DNA of 63,162 bases, filler included, from Reclinomonas americana ATCC 50394 (GCA_048213135.1; 4 parts of 2 records of this genome joined end to end with filler, not necessarily neighbours in it); one strand, 5' to 3'; counted from the first letter of the whole stretch, positions 164 to 61,700 are shown. The notes: generated from the sequence alone by a model not told the origin. Numbers and translations are program-made.

Positions 164-1233
164 CGGCGGCGGAGTCCGCGGGTTCCTCGCCCACGGACTG
201 AGCTCGCTACAGGAGCTGCTGTCGTCGTTAAATGTGTTGCGAAAGCAGCCGACATCTGCGGCCGCCGCGGCATCGCTGACAGGTTCCGGCGACGCCTTGT
301 CACTAGTTTCGTGTGGATTGTGTTTTCTCTGTGGCCGAGCGGGTGGATGACTGTGCTCTGTGTGCGTGTAGGGTGATTCGGCAGGTGGCTCGGATCATCG
401 GCGACGAGCTGGACGCAATGCGCCAGTATTGCCGGCGGTGAAGGATGACACGACGACAAGCACAGGTGACTCGATCCATCTTCTCCCTTCCCCTTTTCCC
501 TTCGTCACGCGTTGTCAACGTGTCGCGTCACCTCTCACATCTTCTCCCCGTCTTCTGCTCCCTATGTAGCACACACACATATATACACACACACACACTG
601 TTCCTGCATTTCTTCGAAACTCCACTCGTTCGTCTTTCTTCCTGTTCTTCTGATTCTTCTTCTCCTCGCGGTTTTCGTTCTTTACTTTTCTTTCTCTCTC
701 CTCCTCTCATCCACTCATCCCCCTTCCCCTTTGTCACCCCTCAGCCACCTCCCGCGACATGGACTCTGTCGACGACTCCCTCAACGTGGCCGTGGACTCC
801 TCTCTGGCCGCCGCTGCCCCACCACCCCCGCGCTCCGCCCAGGGCGGCAAGGTGACACGGCCGGTCTCCGTCTGGTACGCCGTGTGTGGCTCGTACGGCG
901 ATCGACAGATTCTCGCTCTCTACCTCTCCAACGACACCCTGGTGCTGCGCTGCATCGAGAGACCACTGGCGGTCACCGGGTCGGCTGTCGGTGGCGGTGG
1001 CGGTGGTGGTGGTGGTGGGCACGGTGGACATGGTGATGTGGGCGGAACGAGTGCGAGTACCGCGTGCACGCCGATTGTGCGCCTGCTGCAGCTCTTTGGA
1101 GGGCGTGACAAGGTGCGTGTGAGAGAGAGGGAGGGAGGGAGAGAAAAGAGAGAGAGACTATTCAGCGACGATGTTGATGAGCCTATACTTAACTTATCGC
1201 GCCCTTTCTCATTGACATTCTCTCTCTCTATTG

Positions 1234-1272
<39 letters not shown>

Positions 1273-4200
1273 AGAGAGAGAGAGAGAGAGNNNNNNNNNN
1301 NNNNNNNNNNACGACTAGTTGTAGTAGTAGCCGTACTACTTAACTTTAACTTACGTCGCCCGTTCCTTCCTACTTGTACATCTCTCTCTCTACTTGTCCA
1401 CCTCTCTCTCTCTCTCTCTCTCTCTCTCTGCTGTGAGAGAGAGAGAGAGAGAGACTGTTGGGCGACGTTTTGATGCGCCTCTGGTCGACTGATCACGCAC
1501 TTTCTCGTTTTCTTTCTCTCTCTCTCTCTGTGCTGCCCTCTCTCCTGTATGTGTGCGCGTGCGAGAGTGAGAGAGGTAGCGACTGGATGCGCCGCTGGTC
1601 ATCTAATCACGCTCTTTCTCATTGACTTTTTCTCTCTTTTTATGTGCGTCTGAGAGAGAGAGAGAGCGTCTCTTCAGCGACGACTTCTATTTGTAATCAC
1701 TCTCATTCTCTCTGTGCTGCCCTCTCTCTCTCGGAATGCCCTTTGATTGCATTCCCCTTTCCCTCTCCCCGCACAGGTGGTGGTGGCCATGGATTTGGAT
1801 CCACTGGCGCGCATCCTCATGTGCGTGACAGCCGACGAGACTGTGTTTTTGTTGCCCGTGGACTTCCTGTTGTTTGCCGGTGCACCACACGCTTCGCTCT
1901 TCTGGAGTCGGTCTGGACGGCCAATCTTGCGCGCCGGTATTGGTGTGGGTGGCGGCGCGTCGGGCTCGCGGCACTCCAGTGCAGGTGCGTCTCTCTCCTC
2001 CCTCTCTTGCTCTTCCTCCTTCTCATCCTCCTCCTCATTCGCCTTCTCGTAGATCTCGGCACGGCACCCTTCGGCAGTGTGGAGCTACCCAAGTTGCCGC
2101 TGCTGACGTCTTATGTCGACGGCTCGGGCCACCAGACACAAGGCGACATTAACGATCGCGGTGAGCTGCGCGTGGTGTGGAGTCGCGCACCCGGATCACA
2201 GAACCGGCAGCGCGGCAACGTCACCTGCTGTCGCTGGTGGCGCAGCTTTGACGGCACGGATTTCGCGCTGCTCGGCACCGACTCGGGCTCTCTCATTGTG
2301 ATCAATCTGGAGACGGAGCGCGAGGAGTGTGTGGTCAAGGGCTTCGATCCAGGCATCTTGAAGCTGGACGTCATTGTCGACAAGAACGAGGCCTTCAAGA
2401 CTGTGCTGGTGCACGGACTGCGTGGCATGTTCTTCAGCTTGCTGCTCGAGCAGGAGGACGAGACGGACCAGACGTATCACATGTTGCCGAGGTTTGCGAG
2501 GCACAGAAGATTCAAGGGGGCCTGTGTCGTGTGGTGTCAATCAACGTGGCTGCACAACACTCACTCTCTGTGTGTGTGTGTGTGCGTGTTGTATAAGAGA
2601 GGGAGGGAGTGAGCGACTGTTAGGCGTCGACTTACATGCGCCTCTGGTCGGCTGATGGCACATTTTCTCATTGACTTTTTCTGTCTCTGTGTTGTCCTCT
2701 CTCTTCGCTTCTCTCTGTGTGTCTGAGAGAGAGAGAGAGTGACAGAGTGAGCAACTGTTAGGACGACGATTTTCGTGCACCGCTGCTCGATGATACATTT
2801 TCTCATCGACTTTCTGTCTCTTTGTTGCTCTCTCTCTCTCTCTTCTCTTCTCTCTCTGTATGTGTGCGTTTGCGAGAGTGAGAGAGTGAGCAACTGTTTG
2901 GCGACGATTTTCGTGCATCGCTGCTCGATGATACATTTCTCATGGACTTTCTGTCTCTTTGTTGCTCTCTCTCTTCCGTTCTCTCTTTCTCTTTGTGTAA
3001 GAGTGAGAATGAGTGCGTGAGCGAGCATCAGTCAGGCGACGATAGACATGCGCCTCTGGTCGACATATCGCATGTTTTCTCATCGATTCTCTCTGTGTTG
3101 CCCTCTCCCTTTCCTTCTCTCCCCTCTCTGTGGAGATTGTTTTTGTGTAATCCCCTCACCGCCTTATTCCGCACACAGCTCGCTGGATCGCAAGCCCTTC
3201 ACTGTCGAACCCATCCCCATGTTCACGGGCCAACCGTGCGAGGTCTCCATCCGCTACGACGCCGACAAGGGTCCGCTGATCTGCGCCTACTTTTCCGCCG
3301 CCCAGCGGTTGGAGATTTACGACGCCGAACTGCACCGATACCCGCTCTACGTGTACCAGCTGCACCCCGATACGGGTCTCGTGTACTGGAGTCGAAAGGT
3401 ACAGTTCCTTGCCCCCGCACACGCTTCTCATGCGATTTTCCTCACTTTTCATGTCGATATCGCAGGTCATTTTCTGTGTGCAGCGAGAACCCTCCTCCCG
3501 CGGCAACGAGAAGCTGTGGGCTGTCAGCGGCCTGCTGGCGGCCTCGGCCACGGGCATGTCACAGGATGCGTCGGGCGCTGCGCGTAATGCGGTGCTGCAG
3601 GAGTTCTGCATGCTGCCGTCGGAGCGCATTTGTGGATTTGCATCGTCGCTTCCGCCGCAGCCGTCGCAGCGCGAGAAGCAGGCATCGGCAAGAGAACGGC
3701 AGGCGGAGGTGTTTCACAGCCGCCTGGCCGACTCCAATGCGCCGATTCGTTCAGCAGCTGCAGCTGCCGCTGCGGCAGCTGCTGGGGACGTAGGCGAGGT
3801 GCAATTGCAGCATGAGTTACGCGCAGCCTGTGAAGCGCCCACCTTGTCCTTTTTCTTTACTCACCCTACCGTCAGGGCCACCTTCCGCTGGCTGGACACG
3901 GTGTACGTGTGGACCCAGGACTCGGTGTACGAGTTGGAGACGGGTCGTGCGCCGGAGAATGTGTTTGAGAGCTTGCTGACCAAGGTGTGACAATGTCGAG
4001 AGCAACAGAGTCTCGGCTTGCTTCTCATTCAACTGTGCCTCGCAGAACCCACTTCCACCGCATGCCATTCCGAGCGCGGAGAAGCTGGCCAAGACCTTCC
4101 ACTTGGACATTTGTCGGTTGTACGAGGAGGTCGCTGACCGGTGTTACGAACGTGGTGATCACAACCGGGCCGCCGAGTTTTACGCTCGCTCCGATGTGTC

Positions 4201-7200
4201 GCTGCCCAAGTTGGTGTCGAGGTGAGCGAGAGAGATAGAGAGAGGGNNNNNNNNNNNNNNNNNNNNNNNNNNNNNNNNNNNNNNNNNNNNNNNNNNNNNN
4301 NNNNNNNNNNNNNNNNNNNNNNNNNNNNNNNNNNNNNNNNNNNNNNNNNNNNNNNNNNNNNNNNNNNNNNNNNNNNNNNNNNNNNNNNNNNNNNNNNNNN
4401 NNNNNNNNNNNNNNNNNNNNNNNNNNNNNNNNNNNNNNNNNNNNNNNNNNNNNNNNNNNNNNNNNNNNNNNNNNNNNNNNNNNNNNNNNNNNNNNNNNNN
4501 NNNNNNNNNNNNNNNNNNNNNNNNNNNNNNNNNNNNNNNNNNNNNNNNNNNNNNNNNNNNNNNNNNNNNNNNNNNNNNNNNNNNNNNNNNNNNNNNNNNN
4601 NNNNNNNNNNNNNNNNNNNNNNNNNNNNNNNNNNNNNNNNNNNNNNNNNNNNNNNNNNNNNNNNNNNNNNNNNNNNNNNNNNNNNNNNNNNNNNNNNNNN
4701 NNNNNNNNNNNNNNNNNNNNNNNNNNNNNNNNNNNNNNNNNNNNNNNNNNNNNNNNNNNNNNNNNNNNNNNNNNNNNNNNNNNNNNNNNNNNNNNNNNNN
4801 NNNNNNNNNNNNNNNNNNNNNNNNNNNNNNNNNNNNNNNNNNNNNNNNNNNNNNNNNNNNNNNNNNNNNNNNNNNNNNNNNNNNNNNNNNNNNNNNNNNN
4901 NNNNNNNNNNNNNNNNNNNNNNNNNNNNNNNNNNNNNNNNNNNNNNNNNNNNNNNNNNNNNNNNNNNNNNNNNNNNNNNNNNNNNNNNNNNNNNNNNNNN
5001 NNNNNNNNNNNNNNNNNNNNNNGTCAGTGCGCGCCATGCAATCGAACCCAGCCGCGCCGTCGACACTCGCAGATGTTGCGTGCATGCAGGCACTTTATGC
5101 CCTCACTTGAGCCTGTGCCTATTCACCTTCTTTAACACCAGGGCTTGATGACGGATGATGCCGTGGTGTTGGCGTCGTCGGAGGCGTCGCAGAATGGGAA
5201 AACACTCGATTACCAGGCCGAATTCGTGCACTTTTTGTTGACCAACCAGGACTACGACGCACCGAAGGCGCTGTTGTTGCTGGTTCGCTCCTTTGTGATG
5301 TTAATTGTTGTTGTCGGTGTGTGTCTCACATGTCACCAGGTCAATGCCGGTTTCAACGACATTGCGCTGCGAGTGGCACACCACCGACGAGCCTCGAATG
5401 TGCCGAGGGCGCGCGAGTCGGGAAATATGGCCCGGTCGTCCTCTTCCACCTCCAATCTTGGCTCTAGTGAACGCTCATGTTGCGTGTCCATATGTGTGTG
5501 TACTGGTGTAGTCATTGACTGACGGCGATCGCACAGGGTCTTCCATGGGTCCGCAAGACGACGCGCTCATGACATCGGCGTTGAAGTTGCTCATCAATCG
5601 CGGCGTGCTGGCCCTCTCGCCCACCATTGTGTCATTCCTGTTGGAGAATGGATATGGTGCGCTGCTGCTGTATGTGTGTCGATCGCTACCACGCAGTCAC
5701 TAATTGGCTTTCGCAGCGCTGACCATCGAGAGTGTGAGCCACGGAGCCTTGTTTGAGAGTCTGCCGCCTGATATGCAAGTTACGCGGTGACGAACGAAGC
5801 GCTGGTTGTGTGTGATTGATCGCTCACTCTCTCCCAGTGTCGAGTCGTGCTGGAAGAAGACGAACTGCTCCTGCGACATGTGAATCATTTGTACAGCCTG
5901 CTGCCCGACCTCCAGCCGACCACCTTGGTTTGCATCTCACTGTGTGCTCTCACACCAACACTTGGGTGGCTCACTGGCCGTTTGCGCAGCTGAGAGTATT
6001 CAGAAAACTGCATCCGCGCACATCGCATTTCCTGCATCAAATCGCCTCGATGAAGAAGATGGACATGGACAGCCAGTTCTCCTCGCCAACGCTGGCACAC
6101 CTGCAGGAGCGCCAGGCGGCGATGAAGGTATGTGCTAGCGCCATTGCGTTACCCTCATCTCTCTTCCCTCGCGCTCATGCAATTGTCACAGCATGCACCG
6201 CAAGTATCGCGCTTCGTGGAATTGTTGCTCATGGCCGCCATCCTGCTCGTCACGCGCATGACCAACTCGCCACCGGCAGTGGATGCTGCCACAGCCGCCG
6301 AGCTGAACGAGGTCGATCACTGGCAGGTGGAGACACTGATAAAGCAGCTGGACGACAAGTACAGCCCGTTCGTGTTGCTGCGCTCGTGCTACGCTGTCTC
6401 TGCGTACCGATTTGCCGCCGTGGTTTGTTCCTTTGTTGTTGTGTCATGGAGTGCAGTGTGTGTCTGAGTGCTAACTCATTATGCAGATTCACGAGCACGT
6501 ACACCAGTGGGACAAGGCCTTCAAGTGCCACCTGCTTGATCTCGACCAGCGACTGACCTCCGAGGTCTTTTGTCGCATCCAGTGCTTCGCAAACCGTACT
6601 GCACTTCTTCTTTGACACCACAGTCGCGCAGATTTCAACAGTGGAGCGCGAGGACAACGTCTTTCAGGCGCTCTCCACATTTGTTGCCTCGTGGACCGAG
6701 GAGTGCCGGAAAGCTGTCGCACAGCACCAGTTGTCGATGGACATGGACATTGAGGTGTTGTTGCAACAGCAGCGTGCCGTCATGGTCACCGTGTTGGAGG
6801 AGGTATGTGAAAGAAAGAGAAGGACGTTTGTGGTAACAGCCAGGCACTCATCACCTTCTCGCGTGCAGATGTTTGTGTTGTGGCATCGCTGGGCGCTGCC
6901 GGTGGACGACCTCGAGTCGCACATGCTGTGCAACCTCGACACATTTGCCGATGGCCTCGTATCTGTGCTGTTCCAGTCGACGGTGCGTTCCACTTCTCGC
7001 AGACGGAGATGTGTTTGCTTGCCCACTAACGACTGCCTTCTCTGCAGAGCGGTGCTGCAACGGCACTGAATTTCAGCGTTTCGTTCTACGTGGCGGTGGC
7101 CGAGCACGGCTTGCGAGATGCCTTTACTCGCAACCAGGAGCACCGTTGCGCTCTTGTCTCCCGTGATGTTTTTCAGTGACACTTGACGCTCATGTTATCG

Positions 7201-8252
7201 ATGCAAACAGGCAATCGGATCCAAGCACATTGGAAGCAGCTGTCCGACACGCTGGCCACCAACATGCACAAGCGGCCATTCGTCGTCGTCCCGCAAAGTC
7301 GCAGTGTCGGTCGCCACGAATCACTGTTGTTTAATCGCCGTTGCGTCGTGTCGTCTACCAGAGGATGTGCTTTGCCCTCCATACTCACCCATGATCGTCG
7401 CTTCACCAGATCCCAAGAAACCACTCGACTCGCGCGATCGGGTTTGTTTACCCTCGAAGACTTCTCTCTCTCCATCATGCTCATCTACTCTCTCTCTCTC
7501 TCTTTCTTTCTTTCTGTGCACAGTACGGCGTCGTGTTCACATGTAACCACTACTTTTTGCGGTCGACCTTCAACGACGCCGTGGTTCCGGAGTACAAGCG
7601 GAGAATGGAGTTACTGACGACGGCTTTCCGAGAACGCGTGGCGGCACTGACGCTGGCCGTGGCCCCGCCACCGACACCACCAGCGCCGGAGGAACTGCAG
7701 CGATCCACATCGCAGAACCGCTTTGGCTCGCTGGAGCGCTCGCGGCGGCAGTACAGTAGCCAGTCGGCCGAGCGCGACATGGATCTCATGGCGTCGGATG
7801 TGTCGAACCGCTTCCGCAGCTCCGGAGCCGACTCCTTCACACCACCACCACCAGCATCGTCCTCATCAGCAGCCGCTGCCGTCGCCGCCACCGCCACCTC
7901 CGCAGCACAGACGCGACGAGAGCAACAACTGCAAAAGGCCGTCGATCGCCTCTCACAGCTGGCCGAGTGGGCCAGCCTCTTCACCGTCAACCGCCCTGCG
8001 TCCTCCAACGGCAGCTCGTCCACCACACCTACCTCGGCATCCGCAGCTGCTCCACCACCACCACCACTACCAGCACCGCCACCAGTGTCGTCATCATCCT
8101 CATCCTCATCACCATCAGCAGAGCAGCCGCGATACATCCCATGCGCCTGCCCCATCTGCGTATATAACGACATCCTAGACGAGATCCGCAGCGAGCTGGA
8201 CGCCGCCACGCTCGCCACACAACAGCTGTCCAAGTGGCGCGATGACTTGTGA
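164..8252 (+). CDS. Large multi-exon protein, 5' end outside window: predicted N-terminal beta-propeller, alpha-solenoid and C-terminal split Cys/His Zn-finger (Vps11/Vps18/HPS-like architecture; family not assigned)
   Basis: About 22 GT-AG exons join in frame (e.g. 164-305, 372-465, 745-1112, 1777-1984, 2053-~2518, 3179-3398, last exon ~7524-8252 ending TGA). WD-like strands (VTCCRWWRSFDGTDFALLGTDSGSLIVINLE), TPR/CHCR-like helices (LYEEVADRCYERGDHNRAAEFYARS), FTCNHYF...CACPICV. Gap 4247-5022 hides part of it. Confidence 0.7.
1113..3178 (+). repeat. Diverged ~100-150 bp intronic repeat family with embedded (CT)n/(GA)n, shared by two introns (1113-1776 and ~2600-3100)
   Basis: Recurring blocks gactgtt(a/g)ggcg, atgcgcctctggtcgac and ttttctcattgacttt, each followed by (CT)n-tgtg-(GA)n. 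Confidence 0.75.
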
Positions 8253-8948: not shown

Positions 8949-11900
8949 TCAGTCGCGCTGCAGGCCTTCGTAGCACGACAGGCCGAATGAGTTTCGTAAT
9001 GTATCCTGCGGTGTGAAGTTGGGCATATGAGACGACAGAGAGAAAGTATGCGTCTTCGTGAGTTGATTGAGAGTAAACGCAACATCGGCGCCCTTGGCGA
9101 TCAGCCACTCGCCCAAGTCCGTGTAGCCGTAGGCGAAACAAAAGTGCAACGCTGTCTGGCCCTTGCCCTGTGTGCGTGTGTGTCCACCACGTGAGTTCAC
9201 CGCTGCATCATCGAGTATCGCTCTCGTCTGCAACGTACGTTTTGCGCGTTGAGATTGCACTTGTGCTTTGCCATGAGCTTCAGCACGTTCTTGTGTCCGT
9301 TCTGGGCGCCAATGATCAGCATGGTGTTGCCGAACCTGCATTCCACAACCATTTAGCAACCATCACGACAAATGAAAGGAGACGAGACGGGCACGCAACG
9401 GATCGCAAATGTTGGGATCGAGGNNNNNNNNNNNNNNNNNNNNNNNNNNNNNNNNNNNNNNNNNNNNNNNNNNNNNNNNNNNNNNNNNNNNNNNNNNNNN
9501 NNNNNNNNNNNNNNNNNNNNNNNNNNNNNNNNNNNNNNNNNNNNNNNNNNNNNNNNNNNNNNNNNNNNNNNNNNNNNNNNNNNNNNNNNNNNNNNNNNNN
9601 NNNNNNNNNNNNNNNNNNNNNNNNNNNNNNNNNNNNNNNNNNNNNNNNNNNNNNNNNNNNNNNNNNNNNNNNNNNNNNNNNNNNNNNNNNNNNNNNNNNN
9701 NNNNNNNNNNNNNNNNNNNNNNNNNNNNNNNNNNNNNNNNNNNNNNNNNNNNNNNNNNNNNNNNNNNNNNNNNNNNNNNNNNNNNNNNNNNNNNNNNNAT
9801 GGTGGTCTGATGCGGAGCAGCGGACGACTCGGCGGCTGTGATATTGGGGTTGAGAGAGAGGACGAAGGGGGTTTTTCTCAAAGAGGAACACAAACCAGCA
9901 GAGGACGGAGCACCGGGTGTTGTGCGTCCTGCCGCAACAACGGCCGGCGCGGGTGGAGCTGCAGGGAGACATGGTAAAGTGAGTGTGCATGCATCGCTGC
10001 CATGCAATGACCCCACGATGGCGTACCAGTGAGCGAGGGTGCAGGCGACGGTGCTCGCGATGCAGGCAGTGATTCCACTTGCGGTGCCGCAGCTGCGTGA
10101 CGCATCGGCAATGTCAGTGCCTTGTCAATCATCGCATGTCCATGTCAACAACTCACCAACAGCGGCCTCGTGCGGAGTGAGTGGCGGTTGCGCGGGGGTG
10201 GGGGCACGAGAGGCTGTCGCGCGAAATTGTCAGCAAGAGCACATAAAGAGACTGTCGTGACAGCACACGCACGTTGCACAACAATCGGCGACGGTGCACG
10301 GGATGGCTGAGCATCGAAAGAGGGCACTGGCGAATGCGCTGCATGCCAACCCGAGAAAATAAGAATCAAAAACAAATGGATAACTACGGGGGCACCGACA
10401 AACCTGGTGGAACATGTGCATCTTCGTGATGCGGCGTGAGTGGCGGAGGAGCCGGCGAGGCACTTCTTGAAGCTGCGGGCACACCAACAAGTCAGTGTCG
10501 CAATTCTCAGCACGAGCTTCGCAGAGGAAAGCAGTCTTACCGGGTGGCTGCAGTTCGTCCGGTGGCATGGGCGACGCAAGACGGCCGTGAGGAGTCGTCG
10601 GCACTGGTGATGACGACGGAGCGGCACTTGCTGTGAGGCAGGGGAAAGGAGGCCAGTGAGACACCAAATAGTGGCTGTTGAGAGCCAATGAAAAACTAAC
10701 CATAAGCATCGATGGGAGTTTGTGGATGCGGCACTGCAACCAACAAAGTAAATAAACAACAACAGCGACTGTGCACAACAGCAATGCAAACAGTACCTGG
10801 GGCGGGACGGGCGCTGGCCACCAGCGGATCGGGTACAGGTGAAACAGCTGCGCGCAAAAAAGAAATGAGTATCATCGCAAGTCGATTTTCCCGTCACGAG
10901 TACGCAACAAGGAGTGCCTGCCGGTGCTGGTGTCGTCGCAGGAGTCGGATGCGCTGTTGGCGCCAGTGTCGGGCTGGGAGCACCCGGCCGTTGTGGCACG
11001 GGGCTCGGCGACACTGCACGAACAGAGGACGGTGGTTCAGAAAAGGTTGGTGATCCGGGAGGAGGCGGGCCAGAAATTGACAAGGCAGGGCTAGGCGACG
11101 CGGCGTGCGGCGAAGCGAGAGGCAGCACGGCTGGATCGGGCGCCAGCATGGACATGGCAGGAGAGACGGCCGACGAGCGCATGGTGGTGGGCGACACGGA
11201 GAGGCGAGCACTGGCAGCTGGACTCGCTCCGGCCACCGTGCCTGGCGTAACACCGCGCATGGGAATCGGCGACGGCGGCGGTTGGCCAGGCTCGGTCGGC
11301 GCCGGGGTGACGCCACGAAGATAGGACGGCGAGGCGGCACGAGCGGTGCTGTGAGGGCTCGGCGGTTGCGACGCAACGGCGGCAGAATCTGTGGGATACT
11401 GTGCAAGGGCAGGCGGGCGGGCAGAGTCGGTCGGCAGCAAATCGTTCGGCACCGGCGACGCGGCGTAGCGAGCCGACGGAGCCGCGGGTGAGGCTCGGGC
11501 CGCCGCACTCGCCGCAGCGGCCGCTGCCTCTTGCGGTGTGGAAAAGGGAGGCGGGGCGGGCGATTCAGGGCGCATTGTTTGTGGGTCTACGGACAACATA
11601 CCTGCTGGAACAGCGCCGATAGGAGGCACTGTGTACGAGCACACAAAGTGTGAGCAACAAACTCGGGAGAAAGACCGAGAGGTGCGTCATCACTCAACGA
11701 GGATTGTTGTCGCGCTGACTCTTCGGTGACTGCAGTGGCGACGGATCAAAGGCCCCGGAACGCTTCGAGCCAGGTGGTGTTGCCTGTTGCTGGGCTAATG
11801 GCGGACGGCCAGAGGCGGAATAGTTGCGCGCCGATGCCCGCGCCTCGGCAATCGAACCCGTGGCGACGGCGGCATCGGACTGCATCTGTGTCTGTGCCAG

Positions 11901-23254: not shown

Positions 23255-24418
23255 AGTAAGAACATAGTAAAAGTTAGCGCCGCGCAACNNNNNNNNNNNN
23301 NNNNNNNNNNNNNNNNNNNNNNNNNNNNNNNNNNNNNNNNNNNNNNNNNNNNNNNNNNNNNNNNNNNNNNNNNNNNNNNNNNNNNNNNNNNNNNNNNNNN
23401 NNNNNNNNNNNNNNNNNNNNNNNNNNNNNNNNNNNNNNNNNNNNNNNNNNNNNNNNNNNNNNNNNNNNNNNNNNNNNNNNNNNNNNNNNNNNNNNNNNNN
23501 NNNNNNNNNNNNNNNNNNNNNNNNNNNNNNNNNNNNNNNNNNNNNNNNNNNNNNNNNNNNNNNNNNNNNNNNNNNNNNNNNNNNNNNNNNNNNNNNNNNN
23601 NNNNNNNNNNNNNNNNNNNNNNNNNNNNNNNNNNNNNNNNNNNNNNNNNNNNNNNNNNNNNNNNNNNNNNNNNNNNNNNNNNNNNNNNNNNNNNNNNNNN
23701 NNNNNNNNNNNNNNNNNNNNNNNNNNNNCGATGTCTGCACTGGAACTGCCGCCACCAAGGTTCACCACCCGAAGCTGCACATTGCCGGCAGATTGACCAG
23801 CGGCGATGGCGTGCGAGAAGGCCATGGTGCCCAGGAGGTCACTCGGGCCCATCGAAACGGTGCCGGTGGCGCCGGCGACGCCGTTGGCGCCGAAAGTGTA
23901 GGGCGTCACTCCAAAGCCCCCGTTGCCAATGACTGTGGCGGCAGTCGTGTTGGCCAAGCAGTTGGTCGTCGTGCTGCCAGTCACCGACCAGCAAGCCACC
24001 AGCACTGGGGCGATGCCGAGAGACGGGTTGGCTGAGTTGTTGAGGGTGATTTCCTGCTGCGACGAAACGTCGAGCGCCACCGTGCCGTCGCCGTTATTGT
24101 TCCGCGCCTGCACACGGACGCGATACGTGGTGTAGAAAGCCGTCGGCAACGCCGAGATCAAGACGTGACCTCCAGACACACGGCCAAAAGTAGTATCGAT
24201 CACCGGCGTGCCAACGGGCGTTCCAAAGGCATTGTACAGTGCAGTGCCGCCATTGCTCGACGCCGCAGCCTCGACCTTCCAGCCGGTTATGGCATCGCCG
24301 GTCAGCTGCGGACTGGTCCAGGAGATCAAGCCGCCATTCGAGGCCGCAGCCACAACGGTTGGGAGCAGAACCTTGCCCGGGGATTGCTTGCCGTCCTGGG
24401 TGGTCACCGAGGTGGTCT
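18666..24418 (-). CDS. Large fibronectin type III repeat, Thr/Ser/Gly-rich type I membrane protein (5' end in gap)
   Basis: Exons 24418-23729, 23161-21163 and 21050-18666 (TAG). FN3 signatures: PNPPTNLAVTQYGLTNIFLQWTIP...LTANTSYTYQVYA; LTDATNYFIDVRGINGIG; LQPGTPYVMNVRAINSFG. TM helix VWKWVVIGVSCAAGVAVLSIVVWLLV followed by HWRRR and a ~60 aa tail. Confidence 0.88.
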
Positions 24419-45100: not shown

Positions 45101-48013
45101 CCACGAATCGTTCGACACCATCACCGGCGAGAACGCGCAGCTGCAGCGCTCTGTCGACGATCTCATGGCGGAAAACTACTCGCTCCGTGAGCGGCTCGAC
45201 ATTCTCGAGAGCGTACTCATGCAGCCCGATTACGACAGTGGCAGCGCAGGGCGGTCAGCAGATGCATCGGCCCCCTCCGCTGTCAGCGCCGAGACCACGT
45301 CGGCGACGGCTGCGGCCGGTGGCGACGAATCATATGTCGATCCCACCACTGTCGAGCACGACAAGAAGATTGCCGCGTTTCTGCAATATGTTGCGTCTCT
45401 CGTGTCTCCAATCGTCCCCTGTTGTTCCGCTGCTTCTGTTTCCGCACTCTCCCTGTTGCCATCTTGCGCGCTCTTCCGCACATCGTACCACGTCATTTTC
45501 TTCTCCTTTTTCTTCTTCTTCTTCTTCTTCTTCTCTCTCCATCCACTGTTTCCCGTCTCCATTCCGTCTCCTTACTTCGCTTATCTATATCCCACTAAGT
45601 TCTGGCATGCACTATCTTCCATCCTCGATGTTTCATCCACCTTTGCTCTTCCGCATCTATTTGCCTCTGTTCCCGCGTTCGTTCCTTTCTCCCTTCGTTC
45701 ACGTCTCCTCCTTCCGCTCCTTTCTTCACCACTTCTTCGTTACTCAATGCCCATTGACGCTCCACATCCTTCGCCTCCGTTTTCTCACTCTTTTTTCTCT
45801 CCACGTCTTTCGTGAATTCACATCTCCACCTTCCAGCTCTTCTTCCTTCCGCCTCGCTTTTCTCCATCCCACTTCTTCCTGCCACCCTTGATCTTGCTTT
45901 GCAATTTCTCTCCACCGCCCGCTCCATTACTTTCCTCCCTCATGTCTTCGTTTCCCGACATCTCGCTACGCTGGACCTTTGCCCTCCGTCGCCCTCCATC
46001 TCTTCCCTCTCTGCTTCCTTCCATCCATCTTTATCACACCTCCTGTCCTTTCCCATCTTCCCCTCCCTTACCTATCTCTTCTTCTCCCTTCTTACCCTCA
46101 CTTTACCCTCCCCCTTCCCCTCCCCCCGCAGTGGCGCGAGCAATACCTCCAAGACCTACAATCCCACCTGGAGGCCATCAACGGCTCACCCTCAGCCACA
46201 CCAGTGCAAGCACCCTCCACCGACGCCCTGCACGCGGCACTGAATCGCCACGTGCGCGAATTTCTGGGTGATGCCACGAAGCGCAGCATCATGCAGCGGG
46301 AGGTTGGCACGCAGACAGCCGGTTCGTCTCCTCGCCAGTCACTTAAAAATGCTCTCCATTAACCGCCATTGTCTCTCTCAGACGACGCCTCGCCGAATCT
46401 CGTGTACATGCAAGTCGGTGCGCAGCTCACGTCGCCCAACGCCTCCACCACCTCGGCGTTCCAGTACCTCGAGCAGCGCCTCCCTGCTGGTCCACCTCCG
46501 GCGGCCGCCGCTGCGGCGTCCAGCGAGGGTACCACCGACGACGACGACAGTCAGCGCGTGGGCACGGCAGAGCCGGCGGGCCAGCGGCAGGCACTGCGAC
46601 GTGACAATCTGCGACCGTCGCGCGATCACGTGCAACGCCTGCATCGATCGCGCTCCACGTCGCCCGCCGCCGACAAGGTACTGGCCGAGTTGCAGTCGCC
46701 CAAAACGGGCGCCGAGGTGGCGGCCACAAACTCGCCTCGCAAGTCGCCGCCGCGGAAACCTAAGACCCCGCAGCGCTCGCGACCACCCTCGCGACCGTCG
46801 TCGCCGGCCAAGCGTGGTGCGGCGGCCGCGGCGGCCGCCCTCACATCGGTGATTGAGAGTGTGCCGAGTCGCACCCCTTCGCGACCGTCATCACCTCCGC
46901 CGGCTCCCAAGCCACCACCAGCCTCGTCGCGCAGCAGTGGCGTCAAGTCGCCACTCCGCGCCAAGTCACCGAAGGTTTCGTCGAAAAAGACGGCCGCCAC
47001 CGCCGCCGCGGACAGCGCAGCGCAGTCGTCGCCGTCATTACCACCGGCACCGCCACCTCCACAGCCGCCTGCATCGGATCCACCACCGGCTGGCTCGCCA
47101 AAGGCGAAACGCACGGCGCGCCTCAAGTCACCAGCGTCGGAGCAGCAGCAGCAGCAGCCACCGGCGTCACCGAATCGGTCGCGACCGACGACACCCGGCG
47201 CGCGCCACAAGAAAAAGGCAGTCGAGTCTCCGCAGGCGCTAGAACAACTTCAGCAGCAGCAGCAACAGCAGTCTCCGGCATCGCCGAGTCAATCGAGGCC
47301 ATCGACTCCCGGTGGTGGTGGTGGCGGCGGTGGTGGCGGCGGCACTCGCCCCAAGAAGAAGAAAAAGCTGGTGGATTCATCGCGCCCGCACACACCGACG
47401 ACCGCCTCCGCAGGCGTGAGTAAGAGCGCGGGTGTGCCAGAACATGGAGCCGTCGTCGTGGAGAAGGAAGAGGAGGTCGGCGACAATGCGACGGACTCCC
47501 CTGGTCGGAAGCGAGCAAGCAAGGCGAAGAAGAGCAAGAAACGAGCGGAGGCGAGTGACGAGACGACTGCAAAGAGCAGTGCTGTGCCGCACCTGTTGGT
47601 TCCGCCACTGGATCTGGGCGCCACGTCGCCGTCCAGTGCATCGTCCGCGTCGCGCTCACCATCGTCGTTTGTGGAGGGTGCCGCGCCTGCGGGTGCGGAC
47701 AGTGACACGCGCGCCTCATCACTGAGTCCGCGCCATACTCGCCGGAGCCCGTCCCAGTCACCGCGATCGTCGCTGTCGCGCGATTCCATCTTGGCACCGC
47801 TGCATCGCTCGCCCGTGGAACCCGTCACGGATGCAACACACTTCAAGAAACAACGACGGCGATCACCGTCGAAGCAGCGGCCGTCGACCGCCAACGCAGC
47901 AGCGGCGGAGGTCAGTCACATGCTCGAGCAGCACCGACGACAGGAGCAGGAGGCGAAGCGGCAGCTGGCACTGGCCACGGCGCTGGCTCGCCGGCGCAGG
48001 AAACAAGTGCGAG

Positions 48014-48044
<31 letters not shown>

Positions 48045-51735: not shown

Positions 51736-54700
51736 CTACTGCCTCTGCGCCAATAGCAGCTCCTCCAAGCGCTGGAGACGCGCAGTGAGCGAGTTGATCT
51801 GCTGCTCCTGCTCGCGCAGCTTGCGGTTCTGCTCCTCAATGAGCGACGTCTGCTCGTTGACAGCTTCGACCAGCACTGCCGTCATGCGCGGGTAGTCGAC
51901 CGTCAGCACGTCCTTGATGGGCGCGTTGTCCGAGGTCGACGTCACCATGTGCACCAGCTCGGGGAACACGCGCTGCACGTCTTGCGCCAGCACACCAATC
52001 TCCAAGTGGTCCACCTCAATCTTGCGCTGAATGGTCTTGGCCGCCATCTCGTTCCACCGGTACTTGTAGGCGGTGATCTGGCGCAGGGAGCCAAGCACAT
52101 TGTCGATGCGCGTGAGGTCGGTCTTGAGACGCTCATCGGACGAGTTGACGAGGTCGGTGTAGATGCGGTGCACGAGGCCAGTACGCGTCTTCCAGAACGG
52201 AATGTCGGCGTTGGTCATGTAGTCGGCCGTGTACAGCTGCACGTACGAGGCATTGGTGGCCGGGCTGAACGACACACCGCGCTCCGCGATCATGATGGCA
52301 CCAGCGTCGGCGCGCAGGTCGTTCGTGAACGACGACACACCTGGCAACAAAAAACAAGAAGTCAGCAACACACGTTTCACCTCTTGCGCCCTCCTCTCCC
52401 CTCTTCCCTCTCCCATCGAAAACGCACCAGCAACCGACAGAGTCGCCGAGGCATTGCTGAGGCTGACGTTGCCGGTCAGCGTGCTGACGCCGGCCACGGA
52501 CAGCGTGCCTCCGAGGGTGGTGGCGCCGAGGTTCACCGTCAGCGTGTTGCTCGCCGAGATGGTCACGTTGCCGTTCAAGGTGCTGGTGTCCGACACGACC
52601 AGCTTGGCGCCGAGCGTGGCGTTGCCGGCCACAGACAATGTGCCATTCAGCGTGGTCACACTGCTCGTGCCGACCGTGAAGTTGAAGCCGTTCGAGATGG
52701 CGACATTGTTGCTAAATGTCGAGGCGCCGCCAACCGAAAGCGTGCCCGAGAGCGCCGTCGCACCGGCTGTCACACTCAGACCGCCGCCAAAGCTGGCGAG
52801 TCCAGTGGTCACTGTGAATGTGGCTCCCGTGCCGACAGTCACCGTGTTCTGTGAGGAGCGACAAGAGAAGCACAAGAGTGAGATCACACAAAAAAAAAAC
52901 ATGGTATCATCATCATGGACTGCTGCTACACAACGCAACATTGAGAGTGGCAACACCAGCCAGCGTGAATGCGCCGGCCATGGTAGTGGTGCCGTTGCCG
53001 ACGACCAGATTGACGCCAGGTGAAATGGTCACCGTGTTGCCAAAAGTGGAGGTGCCCGTCGCCGACAGGCTCGTCACCGTCGTCACACCCGTGACGTTGA
53101 CAGTGCCGGCAAAGGTGCTGGCGCCGTTGCCCATGGCAAAGGTGCGCGAGTTGCTGATCGTCACGTTGCCGTCAATGTTGGTTGAGCCGTTGACGGACAG
53201 CGCGTTGTTCAAAATGGTCACGCCCGCCACCGTCAGCGCGCCGCCAAAGGTCACCGCGCCAGTGCCCACAGTGAGCGTCGAGGTTCCATTGATGGCCACG
53301 TTACCGGAGAAGGTACCTGATTTTTTTTTCGCATCGACAGACAGACAATGAGACGAACAGCAATAGATAAAAAGAGATGTAATGGCTACGCACCCGCCGC
53401 AGTGGTCACACCACCCGTCAGCGTCGCCAAACCGGTGACCGCGAGTGTGCCGCCGAGAGTGCTGGCGCCGGCATTCACGCTGAATGTGTTGGCGTTGAGC
53501 ACAGCGAGCGAGCCGTCAAAGCTGGCGGCCTTGCCCGTGATCGAGCCCGTAAACGTGGACGTCAGACCGGTCACCGACAGAGTGCCGCCAATGGTGGTGG
53601 CACCCGTGGTCACCGTGAATGTCGAGCCGCCACCGACAGACACGTTGCCGCTGAATGTGGCAGCCTGAGCAACCAGACTGGCGCTGAGGGTGGTCGCACC
53701 CGTGACGCCGAGCGTGCCGCCGAGAGTGGTGGCACCGCCGGTGGCCACCGAGAAGCTGTTGCCGTTCAGCACCGACAGGTTACCGTCAAAGTTGCCGGCC
53801 TTGGCAGACAGCGCACCCGACAGCGTCGTCAGGCCGGTTACGCTCAACGAGCCACCGAGCGACGTCGCGCCAGTGCCGACCGTAAACGTGTTGGCATTCT
53901 GCACCGCCACTGCGCCATTAAAGGTGGCATCCTTGGCGGCGACAGTGGCCGCAAACGTGCTAATGCCGCCCACCGACAGCGTTCCAGACAGCGACGTGGC
54001 ACCCGTCGACACCTAACGCAAAAGAAAACCAAGGAGGTGAGTACACGAGCGCGGATGGATACAAAGAGTGTGCGTGTCTGTGCAAAGTTGGCACGCACCG
54101 TCAAGGTGGCGCCCGTGCCCAGAGTCACGTTGCCGTTGAGCGTGCTGGTGCCGGCGACAGTCAGCGTGCTGGAGAGGGTGGTGGCCAAGGTCACGCCGAG
54201 GGTGCCGCCAATGGTGGCGTTGCCCGAGACGAGCGACAGGTTGATGCCCGTGTCGAGGGTGACCGCGCCCTTGAACAGCGACGTCGAGTTGACCGTGAGC
54301 GCCGCGAGCGTGGTCGCTCCCGTGACCGTGGCCGTGCCGCCAACCGTCAGGTTGCCCGACGTGAGTGCCAGGTTACCCGCCGACAGAGTTGCGCCGCCAG
54401 AGAATGTCGCCAAGCCGGCCACACTGAGCGTGCTCGACAGCGTGGCGGCACCCGAAATGGCCGCCGTGCCCGACAGCGTCGTTGCACCGCCGACAGTCAG
54501 CGTGTTGGTGCCGCTCACCGTCACATTGCCGCCAAACGTCGACGCCGCACCCGTCGACACACCACCGGTGAGGGTGGCCAGGCCGGTCACACCGAGTGTG
54601 CCGCCAAATGTCGCCGCACCGGCACCGACAGAGAAGGTGCTGGTGGCACCCGTCACTGCATACGAGTGAAGAAAAGGTGAGTAAAAAAATGATTCTATGG

Positions 54701-57700: not shown

Positions 57701-58695
57701 GGAGACCGACAGCGTACCGTTCAGCGTGGTGGCACCAGCCACCGTCAGCGAGCCACCGAGAGTGGTGGCGCCAGTTGCCACCGTAAATGTAGAGCTGTTG
57801 GTGACCAACGTAGCGCCACGGAACTCCGCCGTCGAGGCCGCCGTAAAGGCACCGCTAATCGTCGTCACGCCCGAGGTCACCGAGAGGCCGCCACCCAGCG
57901 TTGTCAGACCAGTAGTGGTGCTGAGCGTGGAGCCGCCAAGCAAAGCAACATTGCCGGAGAAGTTGGCCGCGTTCGCCGTGAGCGTGCCAGTCAGAGTGGT
58001 CGCGCCCGTCACCGAGAGGGAGCCGCCGAGTGAGGTGGCGCCAGTGCCCACCGTGAGAGTGTTGGCACCGGAGAACAGCACGTTGCCGGTGAACGTGGTG
58101 ATGCCGCCAACCGACAGCGTGCCCGTCAGCTTAGTGTTGCCCGTCACCGTCAGGTCGCCGCCAAGAGCCGTGGCAAACGTGCCGCTGACCGTCAGCGTGT
58201 TGTTGACAGTCGTCACACCGTTCAGCGAGGCTGTGCCGGCGGCCACCAACGGACCGTTAAAGGTCGAGGTGCCCGTGCCCACCGTGAAGGAGAACAAGTT
58301 CGCGATCGCCACGTTGTTGTTGAACTGCGAGGCACCCGATACGGTGAGCGGACCGCCAATCGTCACTGTGCCGGTGCCCGTGGTCACCGTGTTCGTACCC
58401 GACACCACGAGGTTGCCGTTGAGGGTGGACACACCACCGACAGTGAGCGTGTTGCTCAGTGTTGTGCCGCCCGTCACCGCCAGAGTTGANNNNNNNNNNN
58501 NNNNNNNNNNNNNNNNNNNNNNNNNNNNNNNNNTTAATTAATTAANNNNNNNNNNNNNNNNNNNNNNNNNNNNNNNNNNNNNNNNNNNNGGAGTCTCGAG
58601 GGAAGGGGGAAGGAGGGAGAAAGGAAAGGAGATGATGATGAATGGAGAATGGATAGAGAGAGAGAGAGTGTGTGTGTGTGTGTGTGTGTGTACGT

Positions 58696-58726
<31 letters not shown>

Positions 58727-61700
58727 ACATTGCGCATGGTCAACGTGGGAGTGGTGGCGCCGAGAGTCAGGTCGTCCGTCAGCAAATTGAATGTGCCCGA
58801 GAGCAGCATAGGGCCGACGGCGGGAAGACGGATCTTTTCGACTCCATTGATCATGAACACCAGGTTGTCAATGGGGCTGGTGGAGCCTGTGTGTGCGGGT
58901 GGGAGAGCGGGAAGAGTGATGAGCACACAATCTCTCATTTGAGTATCATCTCTCACTCCCTCGTCATACCTGTGCGTTGCGCAAACATGCCCGTGTTCTG
59001 ATTCGACTCAAAGGCGTAACCGAGGTTGTCGGTGGTCGTAGTCGTGGGAATACCGACCGACACACGCGTGCCGCCCGTCACTTCCAGCGAGGCGACGGGC
59101 GTGGTCGACGAACCAACGCGCAGCTTGCCCACCACAGTACCGCTGCCCGTGGCGTAGTAGGTGCCGGTGATGTTGAGCGCGGTGGCAAACGTCGAGCCAA
59201 TGGTCAGACGCGGCGTGCTGTCCACCGACAGGTACAGTGGAGTGCCGTCGGCAGTGGTACCTGTGCAAGAGAGATGAGAGGCGGCTGGCAACAAAATAAA
59301 GTGCTTGTGTGCACAAACCTCCCGCAAAGAGACCCGTGTCGCCATTAATGTCAAAGGCGTAGCCGGCGGGTGGAGAGCCCGAGTTGCCGGCGACTGTGCC
59401 TTGGCTGACGCGGATGCCGCCAAAGACGCGCAGGAGTGAGTTCACGCTTGAGCTGCCAATGGATACTGCGCCCGAGGTGACCGACATGCCGGCGTTGCCA
59501 ATGGTGACGCCACCGGTGAATGCGTTGTCGCCATTCACTGCAGAGAAGGGGAAGGGTGAGGGAAGGGGAAGGGGAAGGGAGAAGGAAGGGAAGGGGAGAA
59601 GGGAGAAGGAAGGGAGAGGGAGAAGAGGGGAAGGGGAGGGAGAAGGAAAGGAAGGGGAGAAGGAGAGGAAGGGGAAGAGAGAAGGAATGGAAGGGGAAGG
59701 GAGAAGGAAGGGAAGGGGAAGGGCGAAGGAGAATGGAGAGGGCAAGGCAATGGAAGGGATCAGTGAATGCAAGAAGGGGAAAGGAAGAAAGGATGACGAA
59801 AAGAGCAAGTGAGACGGCGAGGGATGCGAACGAGAAAAAAGGGAATAAGACAAGCGAGAGACTTGAAGAGAGCGTCGGCAAGCGAGTAGAAGCAAGTTTG
59901 ACAGGCAAATGAAACCACAGAGGAACACGAAATAAGTATGAGCCAGAGCAGTGGACAAGGAAAGTAAGTACTCTCATGAGTGTGTGTGTGAGAGAGTGAG
60001 AGGAGAGAAGTCAGTTGTCCGCACGCAACATTGAATGGTGCTCCCACTCTGCACCAGGGCATTCAGGCTGTTGATTTGCACATTGCCGCGCACATCCAGC
60101 GACGAGAACACCACAGCGGCCTCCGACAACGACGCCGGCAGCACGAGGCGCTTGTTGGCCGAGGTGTAAAAGGACATGATTTGCGGAGTCGTCGTCTGCT
60201 GCAGCTGCCGCCCGCCCGCCGACGACGGCGTCACAAACGGATGCCGCAAGGCGGCAGACTCGATTTCCTCGCCCGCCTCCTCTGCGTCGTAGCCATGCTC
60301 CAAATCGAGCGCCTGGTCGCCTCCATCGCTGCGCGCCGACGACGACGCACCAGCAGGAATGGAGGAATCAAAGAGACGACGACGCTTGGCGCCAGCGCGG
60401 CGAGCCGACAATGACGACGGCACAGGCGGATAACCGAATGGTGTCGATGTGGATGACACCGTGGTGGTGGTGGAGAAAATGCCCGTGCCGTCGACTCCTT
60501 GCGAGCCGAACACGATACCGATATCCTTGGTACTCGTTGTGGGTTCGCCTGAAGACACACGCAAACCGCCAGCGACGGCGACGGAGCGATCGGCGTTGCA
60601 CGTGTTGAAGCCGACCGTGGAAGTACTACTTGTGCTATTCGTACAGATGACGCCTGGAGAGGGGGAAGGATGAGAACAAGACGAAGGGGAGACAGCCGGG
60701 GTCGATGCGCTTACCATTTTTTACAACAAGATCACCGCCAATGACGGCATCGCCGCCCGTTGACACCGTGCCGGCGACAGCCACATTGTTTTTCATCTGC
60801 ATGTTGATGATTGTCAGCTCATGTCTCGCTCACAGGAATGACACATGCATTGCACTCGCCTTTAGAACAAAATACGTAATAAGGAACGCTCCGAGCAGGA
60901 GCACGACGAGCGAGATGATGATGACCCAGATCAAGCACACTTGCTTGCGACTCTTGGAGTACGTGTACTTGACGTGCTCGTCCACCTGCGTCGAGCGAGA
61001 GTGAGAAAAGGCTGTCGCCCCCTTTCTTTCCTCTTTTCCCCCTTTGTGTCGTACCTTTTCAATGCTGCGTAACCTCGGCGCCGGCGGCAACGGCAGCCGC
61101 GGCGGCGGGGCAATGGCACGACCAGTGCGTGGCGTGGACAACGAGGGTCCGGTGCCCGATAGGGGCTTGAGCAGCGGAATCGGTCGCGCGTCAAACGTCG
61201 GTGCGGGATCATCCAAAACTGTAATGGCGGTGGCCGGGCGCGAGGGGAACATCAAATCGCGCTGGAAGCCGAGGCCGCCGGAACTGGCACTGCCGCGATA
61301 CGGGCCCGCCATGCTCAACTAGGCACAAGAACACAAAGGGGAAGGGTCAGTGTATGGGTGAAGAAGAAGGAGGCGGGAAATTGTGACTCAACACTGCTGG
61401 GTCCTCCCATGTACCGCGTGAGGGCGCCACCACGTGGCGTCGACATGTCAAACTCAATGTCGGTGACTCCCGCCGCCGACATGTTGCTGCGTGTTCCGTA
61501 CCCACTGACACTGCTACCGGTCGACGACTCGTCATCGGGCTCCATAATCGACATTTGGTGCTGCACGCTGCGCGTCGACATGTCCAACTCGCGCGGAGTG
61601 GCGTACGTGTCGAGTGGGCGCGGCGATTGTGGGTAGGCGCGTGGTGAACCGCCTCCGTCGCGCGGAGTGGGCGACATGTAGCCACTCAGGGGATTGGTCA

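Follow-up and report, generated by a model that had tools for sequence, protein, structure and literature searches.

We analysed a 63,162-base stretch of draft sequence from Reclinomonas americana ATCC 50394, hereafter the window, whose GT-AG introns very probably begin with two discrete kinds of 5' splice site (donor), distinguished by the last base of the preceding exon. After an exon ending in G the donor reads G^GT(G/T/A)(C/T/A)G(T), where the caret marks the exon-intron boundary and a G occupies intron position +5. After A, C or T it mostly reads N^GTTGCGT, less often GTTGAG, GTTACG or GTTTCG, with the G at +6. Donors with G at +5 are called class 1 here, and those of the form GTT..G, with G at +6 and not at +5, class 2. 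The donors themselves are in all likelihood real. As the best fit to the data we infer that these are ordinary GT-AG introns, the second kind of donor being paired by the U1 small nuclear RNA (snRNA) in a shifted register; taken whole, with its mechanism, this account has in our view close to an even chance of being correct, and a changed U1 is a serious rival to it. The evidence base is the one 63-kb window, protein homology and published papers.

Donor classes and the last exon base

Among the 115 scorable donors of the gene model described below, 72 had G at +5, 53 of these following an exonic G, and 21 were of the GTT..G type with G at +6, none of them following G. When seven duplicate contexts from tandem repeats were removed and only unique donors with an acceptor score of at least 7.5 were kept, G stood at -1 in 43 of 56 class-1 donors (77%) versus 0 of 19 class-2 donors (Fisher p = 1.2e-9). 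The first-order donor model used for the parse links neighbouring positions only and therefore cannot impose a dependence between -1 and +3. Class 2 made up 21/115 donors (18%) in the model and would reach about 30 donors (about 27%) if near-equivalent alternatives and the sites at 5075, 7340 and 62294 were accepted, so that the "about a quarter" of an earlier note on this DNA was a fair estimate.

The two classes differ in how strictly their sequence is kept. Class 2 is nearly invariant as GTTGCGT, with G at +4 in 18/19, C at +5 in 16/19 (A in 3/19), G at +6 in 19/19 and T at +7 in 16/19. Its core GCGT is that of positions +3 to +6 of the commonest normal donor, and the variant cores GTT-ACG, GTT-GAG and GTT-TCG parallel the normal cores GT-ACG, GT-GAG and GT-TCG; the base inserted at +3 is always T, and G is excluded at -1. 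In G-preceded class-1 donors (n = 43) the sequence is degenerate: G 19, T 15, A 7 and C 2 at +3; T 19, C 18, A 5 and G 1 at +4; T in 26/43 at +6. The high frequency of T at +3 in this normal register (15/43 G-preceded donors) is itself unusual; 12 of the 15 are G^GTTTG(T), for example at 27818, 28860, 43336 and 54961, and such donors coexist with GTGCGT inside single genes.

Normal-register donors after a non-G exon end are fewer and have the strong cores GTGCGT, GTACGT and GTGAGT. The earlier note had called them few, each with a full GTRCGT, and had named four, which do carry it: C^GTACGT at 9238 (-), T^GTGCGT at 43573 (+), A^GTGCGT at 49124 (+) and A^GTGCGT at 55669 (-). The strong core was borne out, but the count was too low, as the model adds C^GTGCGT at 10272, T^GTGAGT at 24835, A^GTGAGT at 48955 and T^GTGCGA at 50314. 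At 55669 the model had chosen C^GTTTCAGTG at 55675 (-); A^GTGCGTTCT, 6 nt downstream, is in frame with a full consensus and looks the better placement.

What looks like displacement also occurs after G, in another form. Of the well-supported donors there, three have G+6/T+7, and in each the extra base stands at +5, never at +3: GTACAGTT at 3399 (+), GTGCAGTT at 14023 (-) and GTACTGTT at 10796 (-), with acceptor scores of 13.2, 13.0 and 11.3, respectively. They look like a second kind of one-base displacement, confined to exons ending in G. No donor was found with an extra base at +4 or +5 after a non-G exon.

The classes are alike in intron length, phase, branch point and acceptor. All class-2 introns of the model are GT..AG, and in the 19 with the best support the acceptor is CAG 18 times and TAG once (CAG in 55/56 of class 1). 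A branch motif CT(G/C/A)A(C/T) lies 8-45 nt before the acceptor in 18/19 class-2 introns (CTCAC 12, CTGAC 3, CTCAT 3) and in 40/56 class-1 introns, at a median distance of 20.5 and 18 nt, respectively. The median intron length is 68 nt in class 1 and 75 nt in class 2, and phases are mixed in both. U12-type introns have the donor (A/G)TATCCTT and the branch site TCCTTAAC. Like class 2, they constitute a discrete second set of donors of highly uniform sequence within a genome, but both of their motifs are absent from class 2. Since class-2 donors read GTT(G/A/T)(C/A)G and have the same branch and acceptor signals as class 1, a U12-type identity was rejected.

The unusual uniformity of the class-2 motif could also reflect the origin of the introns and not their recognition. 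Had they come from an inserted element that carried a GTTGCGT end and had non-G targets, the rule at -1 would be an insertion footprint; intron-generating transposons carrying a splice site exist in some algae. However, nothing is common to the class-2 introns beyond the 7-mer, their flanks outside the motif being unrelated (at most 55% identity), their lengths span 57 to 742 nt, and their branch points, acceptors and phases are those of class 1. Recent intron-generating elements were rejected for this lack of similarity, and we regard an insertion origin in general as very improbable.

The window contains 17 N runs (4,156 N) and has a G+C content of 58.5% among called bases. Six gene territories were delimited from Pfam scans of open frames together with a gene model built for this analysis; their orientation was set from the Pfam matches and then confirmed by stop-free chains.

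1-8252, plus strand: 26-exon gene
24450-8949, minus strand: large fn3 protein, and a gene of 22 exons with ankyrin repeats at its end
24556-33700, plus strand: coiled-coil gene of more than 2,500 amino acids with about four 1-kb tandem repeat units
about 37800-33800, minus strand: coiled-coil gene
43168-50150, plus strand: kinesin
63162-50151, minus strand: giant protein made of repeats, with a Peptidase_S74 domain at its end, then a leucine-rich-repeat gene

The gene model was limited to the sense strand of each territory, seeded with seven kinesin introns and iterated until convergence. In it, a three-periodic coding model and an intron model were joined with a first-order model for donors, a matrix for acceptors and a scan for branch points; it permitted GT-AG introns only, other intron types being excluded by design. 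The output was 117 introns, with stop-free chains of 494 to 3,099 amino acids in 3 to 26 exons across all six territories. Most introns were 55-90 nt long; some measured 500-750 nt, and these were rich in CT on the sense strand. Typical branch motifs (CTCAC or CTGAC) lay about 20 nt upstream of a CAG acceptor. Unseeded gene models (both strands, flat or self-trained signals) were rejected because they passed over short exons and filled in the antisense strand as well. The cost of a forced parse, quoted below, is the number of log-likelihood units lost in the seeded parse when a donor is imposed.

In a donor-blind parse, the donor information was reduced to GT alone and the intron model was retrained without the first 12 bases. 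GTTGCG was nevertheless the commonest donor hexamer (13/121). Class 2 accounted for 17/121 donors versus 73/3,505 sense GT sites (odds ratio 9.7, p = 1.6e-10), and G preceded none of the 17.

The strand bias of the motif and the rule at -1 can be read from the raw sequence, independently of any gene annotation. Across the six territories, GTTGCGT occurs 19 times on the sense strand versus once on the antisense strand (binomial p = 4e-5), an asymmetry that ranks second among all 7-mers starting with GT. Its sister words have no sense excess (sense:antisense): GTAGCGT 0:2, GTCGCGT 2:3, GTGGCGT 6:11. The base preceding sense GTTGCG (n = 31) is A in 11, C in 6, T in 14 and G in none, whereas G precedes 7/17 antisense copies (Fisher p = 2.6e-4) and 27.7% of exonic non-donor GT sites (p = 4e-5 for 0/31). 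The sense bias and the missing G together indicate that GTTGCG(T) is a sense-strand signal and that the exclusion at -1 is real in the raw sequence, where the previously claimed lack of any G^GTTGCG donor is likewise found to be true.

About ten sense GTTGCG sites are not donors in the model: 11377 (-), 236, 9938, 17522, 25114, 25914, 30182, 36057, 54754 and 8762. G precedes none of them, and T at +7 is missing from all but 11377 and 8762, so T+7 seems to be part of the signal. The GTTGCGT at 11377 (-) was rejected as a donor and taken as exonic, since forcing it costs 22 units. The sole G-preceded candidate of the wider motif, G^GTTACG at 61073, was rejected as well (13 units). A (GTTAC)n pentanucleotide repeat at 37807-37851, adjoining an N gap, yields several chance GTTACG matches that are not donors.

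Individual class-2 introns and other features of the window

A protein search with one kinesin exon gave 19 matches, all of them distant kinesins with at most 64% identity. Four of these homologs were used in tblastn, which matched the kinesin exons, and the spliced motor was then aligned to nine of the 19 over the first 480 residues. The motor contains seven introns, four of which start with GTTGCG. After splicing, the junctions at 43739, 44052 (EEVK^RLFDSG) and 44262 are gap-free against the nine homologs; the junction at 43882 sits in a variable loop, but kinesin homology sets the frame of the exons on either side. At the ankyrin end of the 24450-8949 territory, splicing at 9399, 9238 and 9083 preserves the 33-residue repeat spacing exactly. 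Removal of class-2 introns accordingly restores a continuous protein at 43739, 44052 and 44262 in the kinesin and at 9083 and 9399 in the ankyrin repeats. These five junctions are pinned INDEPENDENTLY, on kinesin and ankyrin evidence that makes no use of the donor motif. Pinning by conserved kinesin and ankyrin motifs had been asserted before and is upheld for 43739, 44052 and 44262 by the alignment and for 9083 by the repeat spacing.

All 26 motifs that the earlier note had listed are present where it placed them (GTTGCG 19, GTTGAG 3, GTTACG 2, GTTTCG 2). As donors, 19/26 were recovered in the seeded parse and 14/26 in the donor-blind parse. The class-2 sites, those absent from that list included, and two comparison sites are given below; "both parses" means the seeded gene model and the donor-blind run.

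43739..43804, plus strand: class 2, C^GTTGCGTGG; 66 nt, in frame, branch CCTGACG; removed according to homology, read through by the seeded model (forcing costs 4.4 units)
43882..43945, plus strand: class 2, A^GTTGCGTTG; 64 nt; both parses; flanks fixed by kinesin homology
44052..44127, plus strand: class 2, A^GTTGCGTGA; 76 nt; pinned by kinesin homology; both parses
44262..44320, plus strand: class 2, A^GTTGCGCTC; 59 nt; pinned by kinesin homology, Pfam kinesin profile positions 220/221 abutting; both parses
44871..44938, plus strand: class 2, A^GTTGCGGCA; 68 nt, branch GCTGACT; both parses
45390..46131, plus strand: class 2, T^GTTGCGTCT; 742 nt, CT-rich; both parses
9006..9083, minus strand: class 2, T^GTTGCGTTT; 78 nt; 33-residue ankyrin spacing kept (GQTALH to FGLS); both parses
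9336..9399, minus strand: class 2, absent from the earlier list, C^GTTGCGTGC; 64 nt; seeded parse; LDPNIC(D)^PFGNT fits the ankyrin spacing; upstream exon cut by an N gap
306..371, plus strand: class 2, A^GTTTCGTGT; 66 nt, TAG acceptor with a weak score of 4.8; both parses
3816..3875, plus strand: class 2 (alternative), A^GTTACGCGC; 60 nt, in frame, so that the frame cannot prove it; forcing costs 1.7 units
5075..5141, plus strand: candidate class 2, absent from the earlier list, T^GTTGCGTGC; 67 nt, directly after an N gap; forcing costs 0.3 units
5479..5536, plus strand: class 2, T^GTTGCGTGT; 58 nt; seeded parse; the donor-blind parse prefers an in-frame GT 12 nt upstream
5779..5837, plus strand: class 2 (alternative), A^GTTACGCGG; 59 nt; forcing costs 4.6 units
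7145..7210, plus strand: class 2, C^GTTGCGCTC; 66 nt; both parses
7340..7409, plus strand: candidate class 2, absent from the earlier list, C^GTTGCGTCG; 70 nt; forcing costs 0.5 units; would replace, in frame, a 106-nt intron whose donor is poor
10848..10908, minus strand: class 2 (alternative), T^GTTGCGTAC; 61 nt; forcing costs 2.5 units
11629..11698, minus strand: class 2, C^GTTGAGTGA; 70 nt; seeded parse; the donor-blind parse picks another GT
16265..17433, minus strand: class-2 donor, A^GTTGCGCGC; N gap within the intron, acceptor uncertain; donor-blind parse; seeded cost 0.2 units
21050..21162, minus strand: class 2, A^GTTGCGTGA; 113 nt; joins two long fn3 frames into a 1589-residue stop-free chain; both parses
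23283..23288, minus strand: GTTGCG string bordering an N gap; string present, exon side N
32670..32744, plus strand: class 2, A^GTTGCGTGA; 75 nt; both parses
35120..35195, minus strand: class 2, T^GTTGCGTTG; 76 nt; seeded parse; the donor-blind parse picks an in-frame GT 12 nt off
35296..35358, minus strand: class 2, A^GTTGCGTAC; 63 nt; both parses
35526..36026, minus strand: class 2, T^GTTGCGTTT; 501 nt; both parses
36398..37073, minus strand: class 2, A^GTTGAGTCT; 676 nt; seeded parse
52849..52939, minus strand: class 2, T^GTTGCGTTG; 91 nt; seeded parse, best acceptor score of the class (12.4); the donor-blind parse picks an in-frame GT 15 nt upstream
58595..58728, minus strand: class-2 donor, T^GTTTCGTTC; adjoins N blocks, acceptor uncertain; forcing costs 3.1 units
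59538..60029, minus strand: class 2, T^GTTGCGTGC; 492 nt; seeded parse
61319..61392, minus strand: class 2, T^GTTGAGTCA; 74 nt, TAG acceptor; both parses
61735..61791, minus strand: class 2, absent from the earlier list, A^GTTTCGTCG; 57 nt; seeded parse
61890..62294, minus strand: candidate class 2, absent from the earlier list, T^GTTGAGTGT; 405 nt; forcing costs 0.9 units
43573..43634, plus strand: comparison, normal register after non-G, T^GTGCGTATT; 62 nt; seeded parse; kinesin motor, beside a 14-residue loop insertion relative to the homologs
9168..9238, minus strand: comparison, normal register after non-G, C^GTACGTTGC; 71 nt; located precisely where one 33-residue ankyrin repeat gives way to the next

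Six of the listed donors missed by the seeded parse (3816, 5779, 43739, 10908, 17433 and 58728) could be forced at a cost of 0.2 to 4.6 units. At 3816 or 10908, forcing puts one ordinary intron of 60-61 nt in the place of two introns with poor donors. N gaps are touched by 17433, 58728 and 23288.

Such disagreements could mean that junctions were mis-placed, the true donors being nearby GTs, or that the assembly is in error, the extra T arising from homopolymer sequencing. At 5479, 35195, 52939 and 60029 the donor-blind parse indeed prefers an in-frame GT 12-18 nt away, a choice between which the reading frame cannot discriminate, and the sequence is a draft interrupted by many N runs. On the other hand, homology or repeat spacing settles the position of five junctions, and neither the 19:1 strand bias nor the rule at -1 depends on annotation. 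Random extra Ts would break exons as well, yet the chains are long and stop-free; homopolymer error was rejected on the ground that the exons remain open. We consider both forms of artefact highly unlikely as an explanation of class 2.

The repetitive genes of the window offer some further observations. At 28100-31650 (+), the coiled-coil gene contains about four tandem units of about 1.03 kb with the same four introns and donors in each: G^GTGCGTTG, G^GTACGGAT or G^GTGCGGTT, G^GTGTGATG, and G^GTTTGTTTG. The giant protein at 51739-60000 (-) exceeds 2,500 amino acids, is made of repeats of the type 'TLGG.L.V.G' and ends in a Peptidase_S74 (endosialidase chaperone) domain, located at residues 297-360 of the frame 51739-53028 (-). 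Its architecture resembles that of phage tail fibres, and the Atlas neighbours of the Peptidase_S74 frame are phage and bacterial tail-fibre clusters only. The protein search gave no match for the 1019-residue fn3 reading frame. In the metagenome comparison, all of the best 80 of 220 loci were distant, with at most 63% identity, or 79% across 27 residues in one locus (L076). An identical pattern of 44 N, 12 called bases and 44 N occurs at 24452-24551, 33691-33790 and 58490-58589, cutting exons of three genes; it may be an assembly or masking artefact.

A proposed register of U1 pairing and competing explanations

According to the shifted-register proposal, the 5' end of U1 would pair with seven bases, G-N-U-G-C-G-U, in one fixed register. 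The first G of the seven would be the last exon base in class 1 and the first intron base in class 2, so that the class-2 helix would be shifted by +1, with G+1 opposite U1 C9, U+3 opposite A7 and G+6/U+7 opposite C4/A3. The cut would still fall before GU, the cleavage site being set later by U6, U5 and the catalytic core and not by U1. Several features of the donors would follow from such pairing. Only T would be admitted at +3, because the shift needs a U opposite A7. The uniformity of class 2 is expected if the intron must make up for the lost exon pairing. Finally, if G-1, G+1 and U+2 hold the helix in its normal register, an extra base after G should stand at +5 and not at +3. The earlier note had presented shifted pairing as a routine rule. 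Its descriptive part stands, as the class is real, frequent, tied to a non-G exon end and of the form expected; the U1 pairing itself is what we infer.

Class 2 can also be paired with a bulge, in which G+1 would lie on C8 and U+2 on A7, one U of +2/+3 would be looped out, and GCGU would stay in its normal place. A +2/+3 bulge is a validated human register in the available part of PMC4856993, its Watson-Crick pair count here equals that of the shifted reading, and the run of two Us would allow the bulge at either position. However, a register that leaves C9 free should favour G at -1 as in class 1, and it was observed in 0/31 sites. Any base could be bulged, but T alone is found, and extra bases at +4 or +5 do not occur after non-G exons. 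The restriction of +3 to T, the exclusion of G at -1 and the lack of an extra base further downstream after non-G exons together favour a shift over a plain bulge, which we think quite improbable.

Nearest-neighbour energies of bare, unmodified RNA duplexes were calculated with six assumed U1 5' ends. Within the window, no Rfam match to an snRNA gene was obtained at the gathering threshold, and relaxing it to E up to 1 brought up nothing but low-complexity chance matches to microRNA and small nucleolar RNA models. Ends with G at position 5 (ACGUAC, ACGCAC) gave a minimum-energy register with U+3..U+7 on A7..A3 and G+1 on C9 in 10/19 class-2 sites, at class-2 means of -4.6 and -6.4 kcal/mol, respectively.

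A number of results weigh against the shifted-register account. The standard ACUUAC end gives class-2 sites a predicted mean of -1.2 kcal/mol, with hardly any pairing in any register; 300-400 exonic decoy GT sites reach -2.6 to -2.7 kcal/mol with the same end, stronger than class 2 (area under the curve (AUC) 0.29-0.30), and G+1 lies on C9 in only 4/19 minimum-energy structures. With every standard-length U1 tested, N^GTGCGT beats N^GTTGCGT (-7.9 vs -4.6 kcal/mol for ACGUAC, -8.6 vs -6.4 for ACGCAC), so pairing strength alone fails to explain why GTTGCGT predominates after non-G exons. In the shifted register, a G at -1 would be neutral or even helpful (a G.U pair with U10), and its absence is explained indirectly only; none of the pairing models considered accounts directly for a G that is missing instead of just superfluous. 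The best account is that the normal form has the stronger pairing after G, where a range of degenerate forms is also good enough, so that the seven-base form is neither needed nor kept. The preference at -1 for A and T above C is, moreover, at odds with pairing to U10. As to the gene models, 7/26 listed donors are missing from the seeded parse and 12/26 from the donor-blind parse, four of the seven kinesin introns used as seeds are class 2, and the coding, intron and acceptor models of the donor-blind run had themselves been trained on the seeded parse.

Alternatively, the U1 recognition strand could be other than the universal ACUUAC, being one base longer and GC-containing, or two U1 species could exist side by side. 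An altered or second U1 would have a 5' strand complementary to GUUGCGU, for example with G at position 5 and an extra A beside A7 (..ACG(C/U)AAC..). With such a strand the full match would fall to class 2, and pairing in class 1 would require looping out one base of U1. Of the six ends tried, only those with the extra A give class-2 pairing that is strong and separated from decoys (-9.2 and -7.5 kcal/mol, AUC 0.90), and they still bind class 1. Such a U1 predicts GTTGCGT over GTGCGT after non-G exons, as observed, and frequent U at +3 overall, as in the 15 of 43 donors noted above. Precedents are given in the available part of Roy and Bowser (10.1101/2022.06.08.495308): AACAAAC matching GUUUGUU in Entamoeba, a U1 candidate with ACGUAC in Mastigamoeba, and a standard as well as a changed form in Physarum. 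The same part of that source, however, has Thecamonas and Mamiellales, with C at +4, retaining a standard U1. Moreover, the hypothetical end sequences were chosen after the donors were known, G^GUUGCGU would be the strongest of all sites and yet is absent, and G^GUUUGU donors need the normal spacing. Normal-register donors after non-G are also weakly paired with ACUUAC (-2.2 kcal/mol), which makes the energy argument for an altered U1 a soft one. We therefore treat an altered U1 as a serious but, on balance, rather unlikely alternative. Altered U1, U5 or U6 recognition or variant snRNAs, which the earlier finding was said to imply, do not follow of necessity; they receive some support from the class-2 mean with ACUUAC lying below the strength of the decoys (-1.2 vs -2.6 kcal/mol).

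Known splice-site systems and the meaning of the second donor class

Shifted and bulged U1 registers have been established experimentally in human cells. In the available part of PMC4856993, all validated noncanonical registers amount to about 1.5% of 201,541 sites, and the +2/+3 bulge class to 68 of these sites, or 54 after curation. The +1 shifted human sites described there (after Roca and Krainer 2009) resemble class 2 in being GT-AG, in matching canonical U1 poorly, in having the consensus one base later with the cut at GU, in having a pyrimidine after GU, and in leaving the exon end unused in pairing. They differ in being rare, whereas class 2 accounts for 18-27% of the donors in the window, is near-invariant in sequence and never follows G. 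In the human sites, A at +4/+5 pairs with two pseudouridines, as that source has it, and the GCG of the window donors does not; the energetic case with a standard U1 is accordingly weak here. The human +2/+3 bulge sites (Roca et al. 2012, as given in the same part of PMC4856993) share the order of GU, extra U and core, but the exclusion of G-1 in the window is ill-suited to a register that leaves C9 free.

In Archamoebae, the U1 recognition strand changes alongside the donor consensus, and Physarum has standard and changed U1 forms (Roy and Bowser, 10.1101/2022.06.08.495308, available part). Both GUUUGU donors (U at +3/+4) and GUGCG donors (C at +4), as known from that group, occur in the window. 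The donor consensus given there for Entamoeba is of the GUUUGU type, the same form as G^GTTTG(T) in the window, and that for Mastigamoeba is GUGCGC, with C at +6, unlike the window donors with mainly T at +6. In contrast to the window, where three donor forms are found within single genes, these lineages have one consensus each, with no dependence on -1 reported in the available part of that study.

Among the papers listed in our literature searches on the shifted register, U1 and the splice site, none reported such a donor class at genome scale, although a description in a genome-paper supplement is possible. The papers linking a shifted register with U1 were human, tunicate or drug work, the tunicate study raising a shifted register as a possibility only. 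The motif words GTTGCG(T) and GUUGCG(U) returned no splicing report by title or abstract.

The known human cases of shifted or bulged pairing concern a small share of sites and were proven mutationally, site by site. If the shifted-register reading is true, a fifth to a quarter of donors would be in one uniform shifted form, all or none according to the last exon base, which would amount to a natural experiment. Such a genome would bear on how the cut site is fixed independently of U1, on the worth of the C9 pair compared with the C8 pair, and on the co-evolution of the U1 strand with its sites. In practical terms, a gene finder with a single donor matrix would misplace a large share of the junctions; even our seeded model preferred odd double introns at 3816 and 10908. 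If, instead, an altered U1 is true, GUUGCGU would be the fully complementary, "true" site and G^GUGCGU would need a looped-out base, and the last exon base would, in a natural genome, set how U1 pairing is registered relative to cleavage. The finding is of interest to the fields of splice-site recognition and intron evolution.

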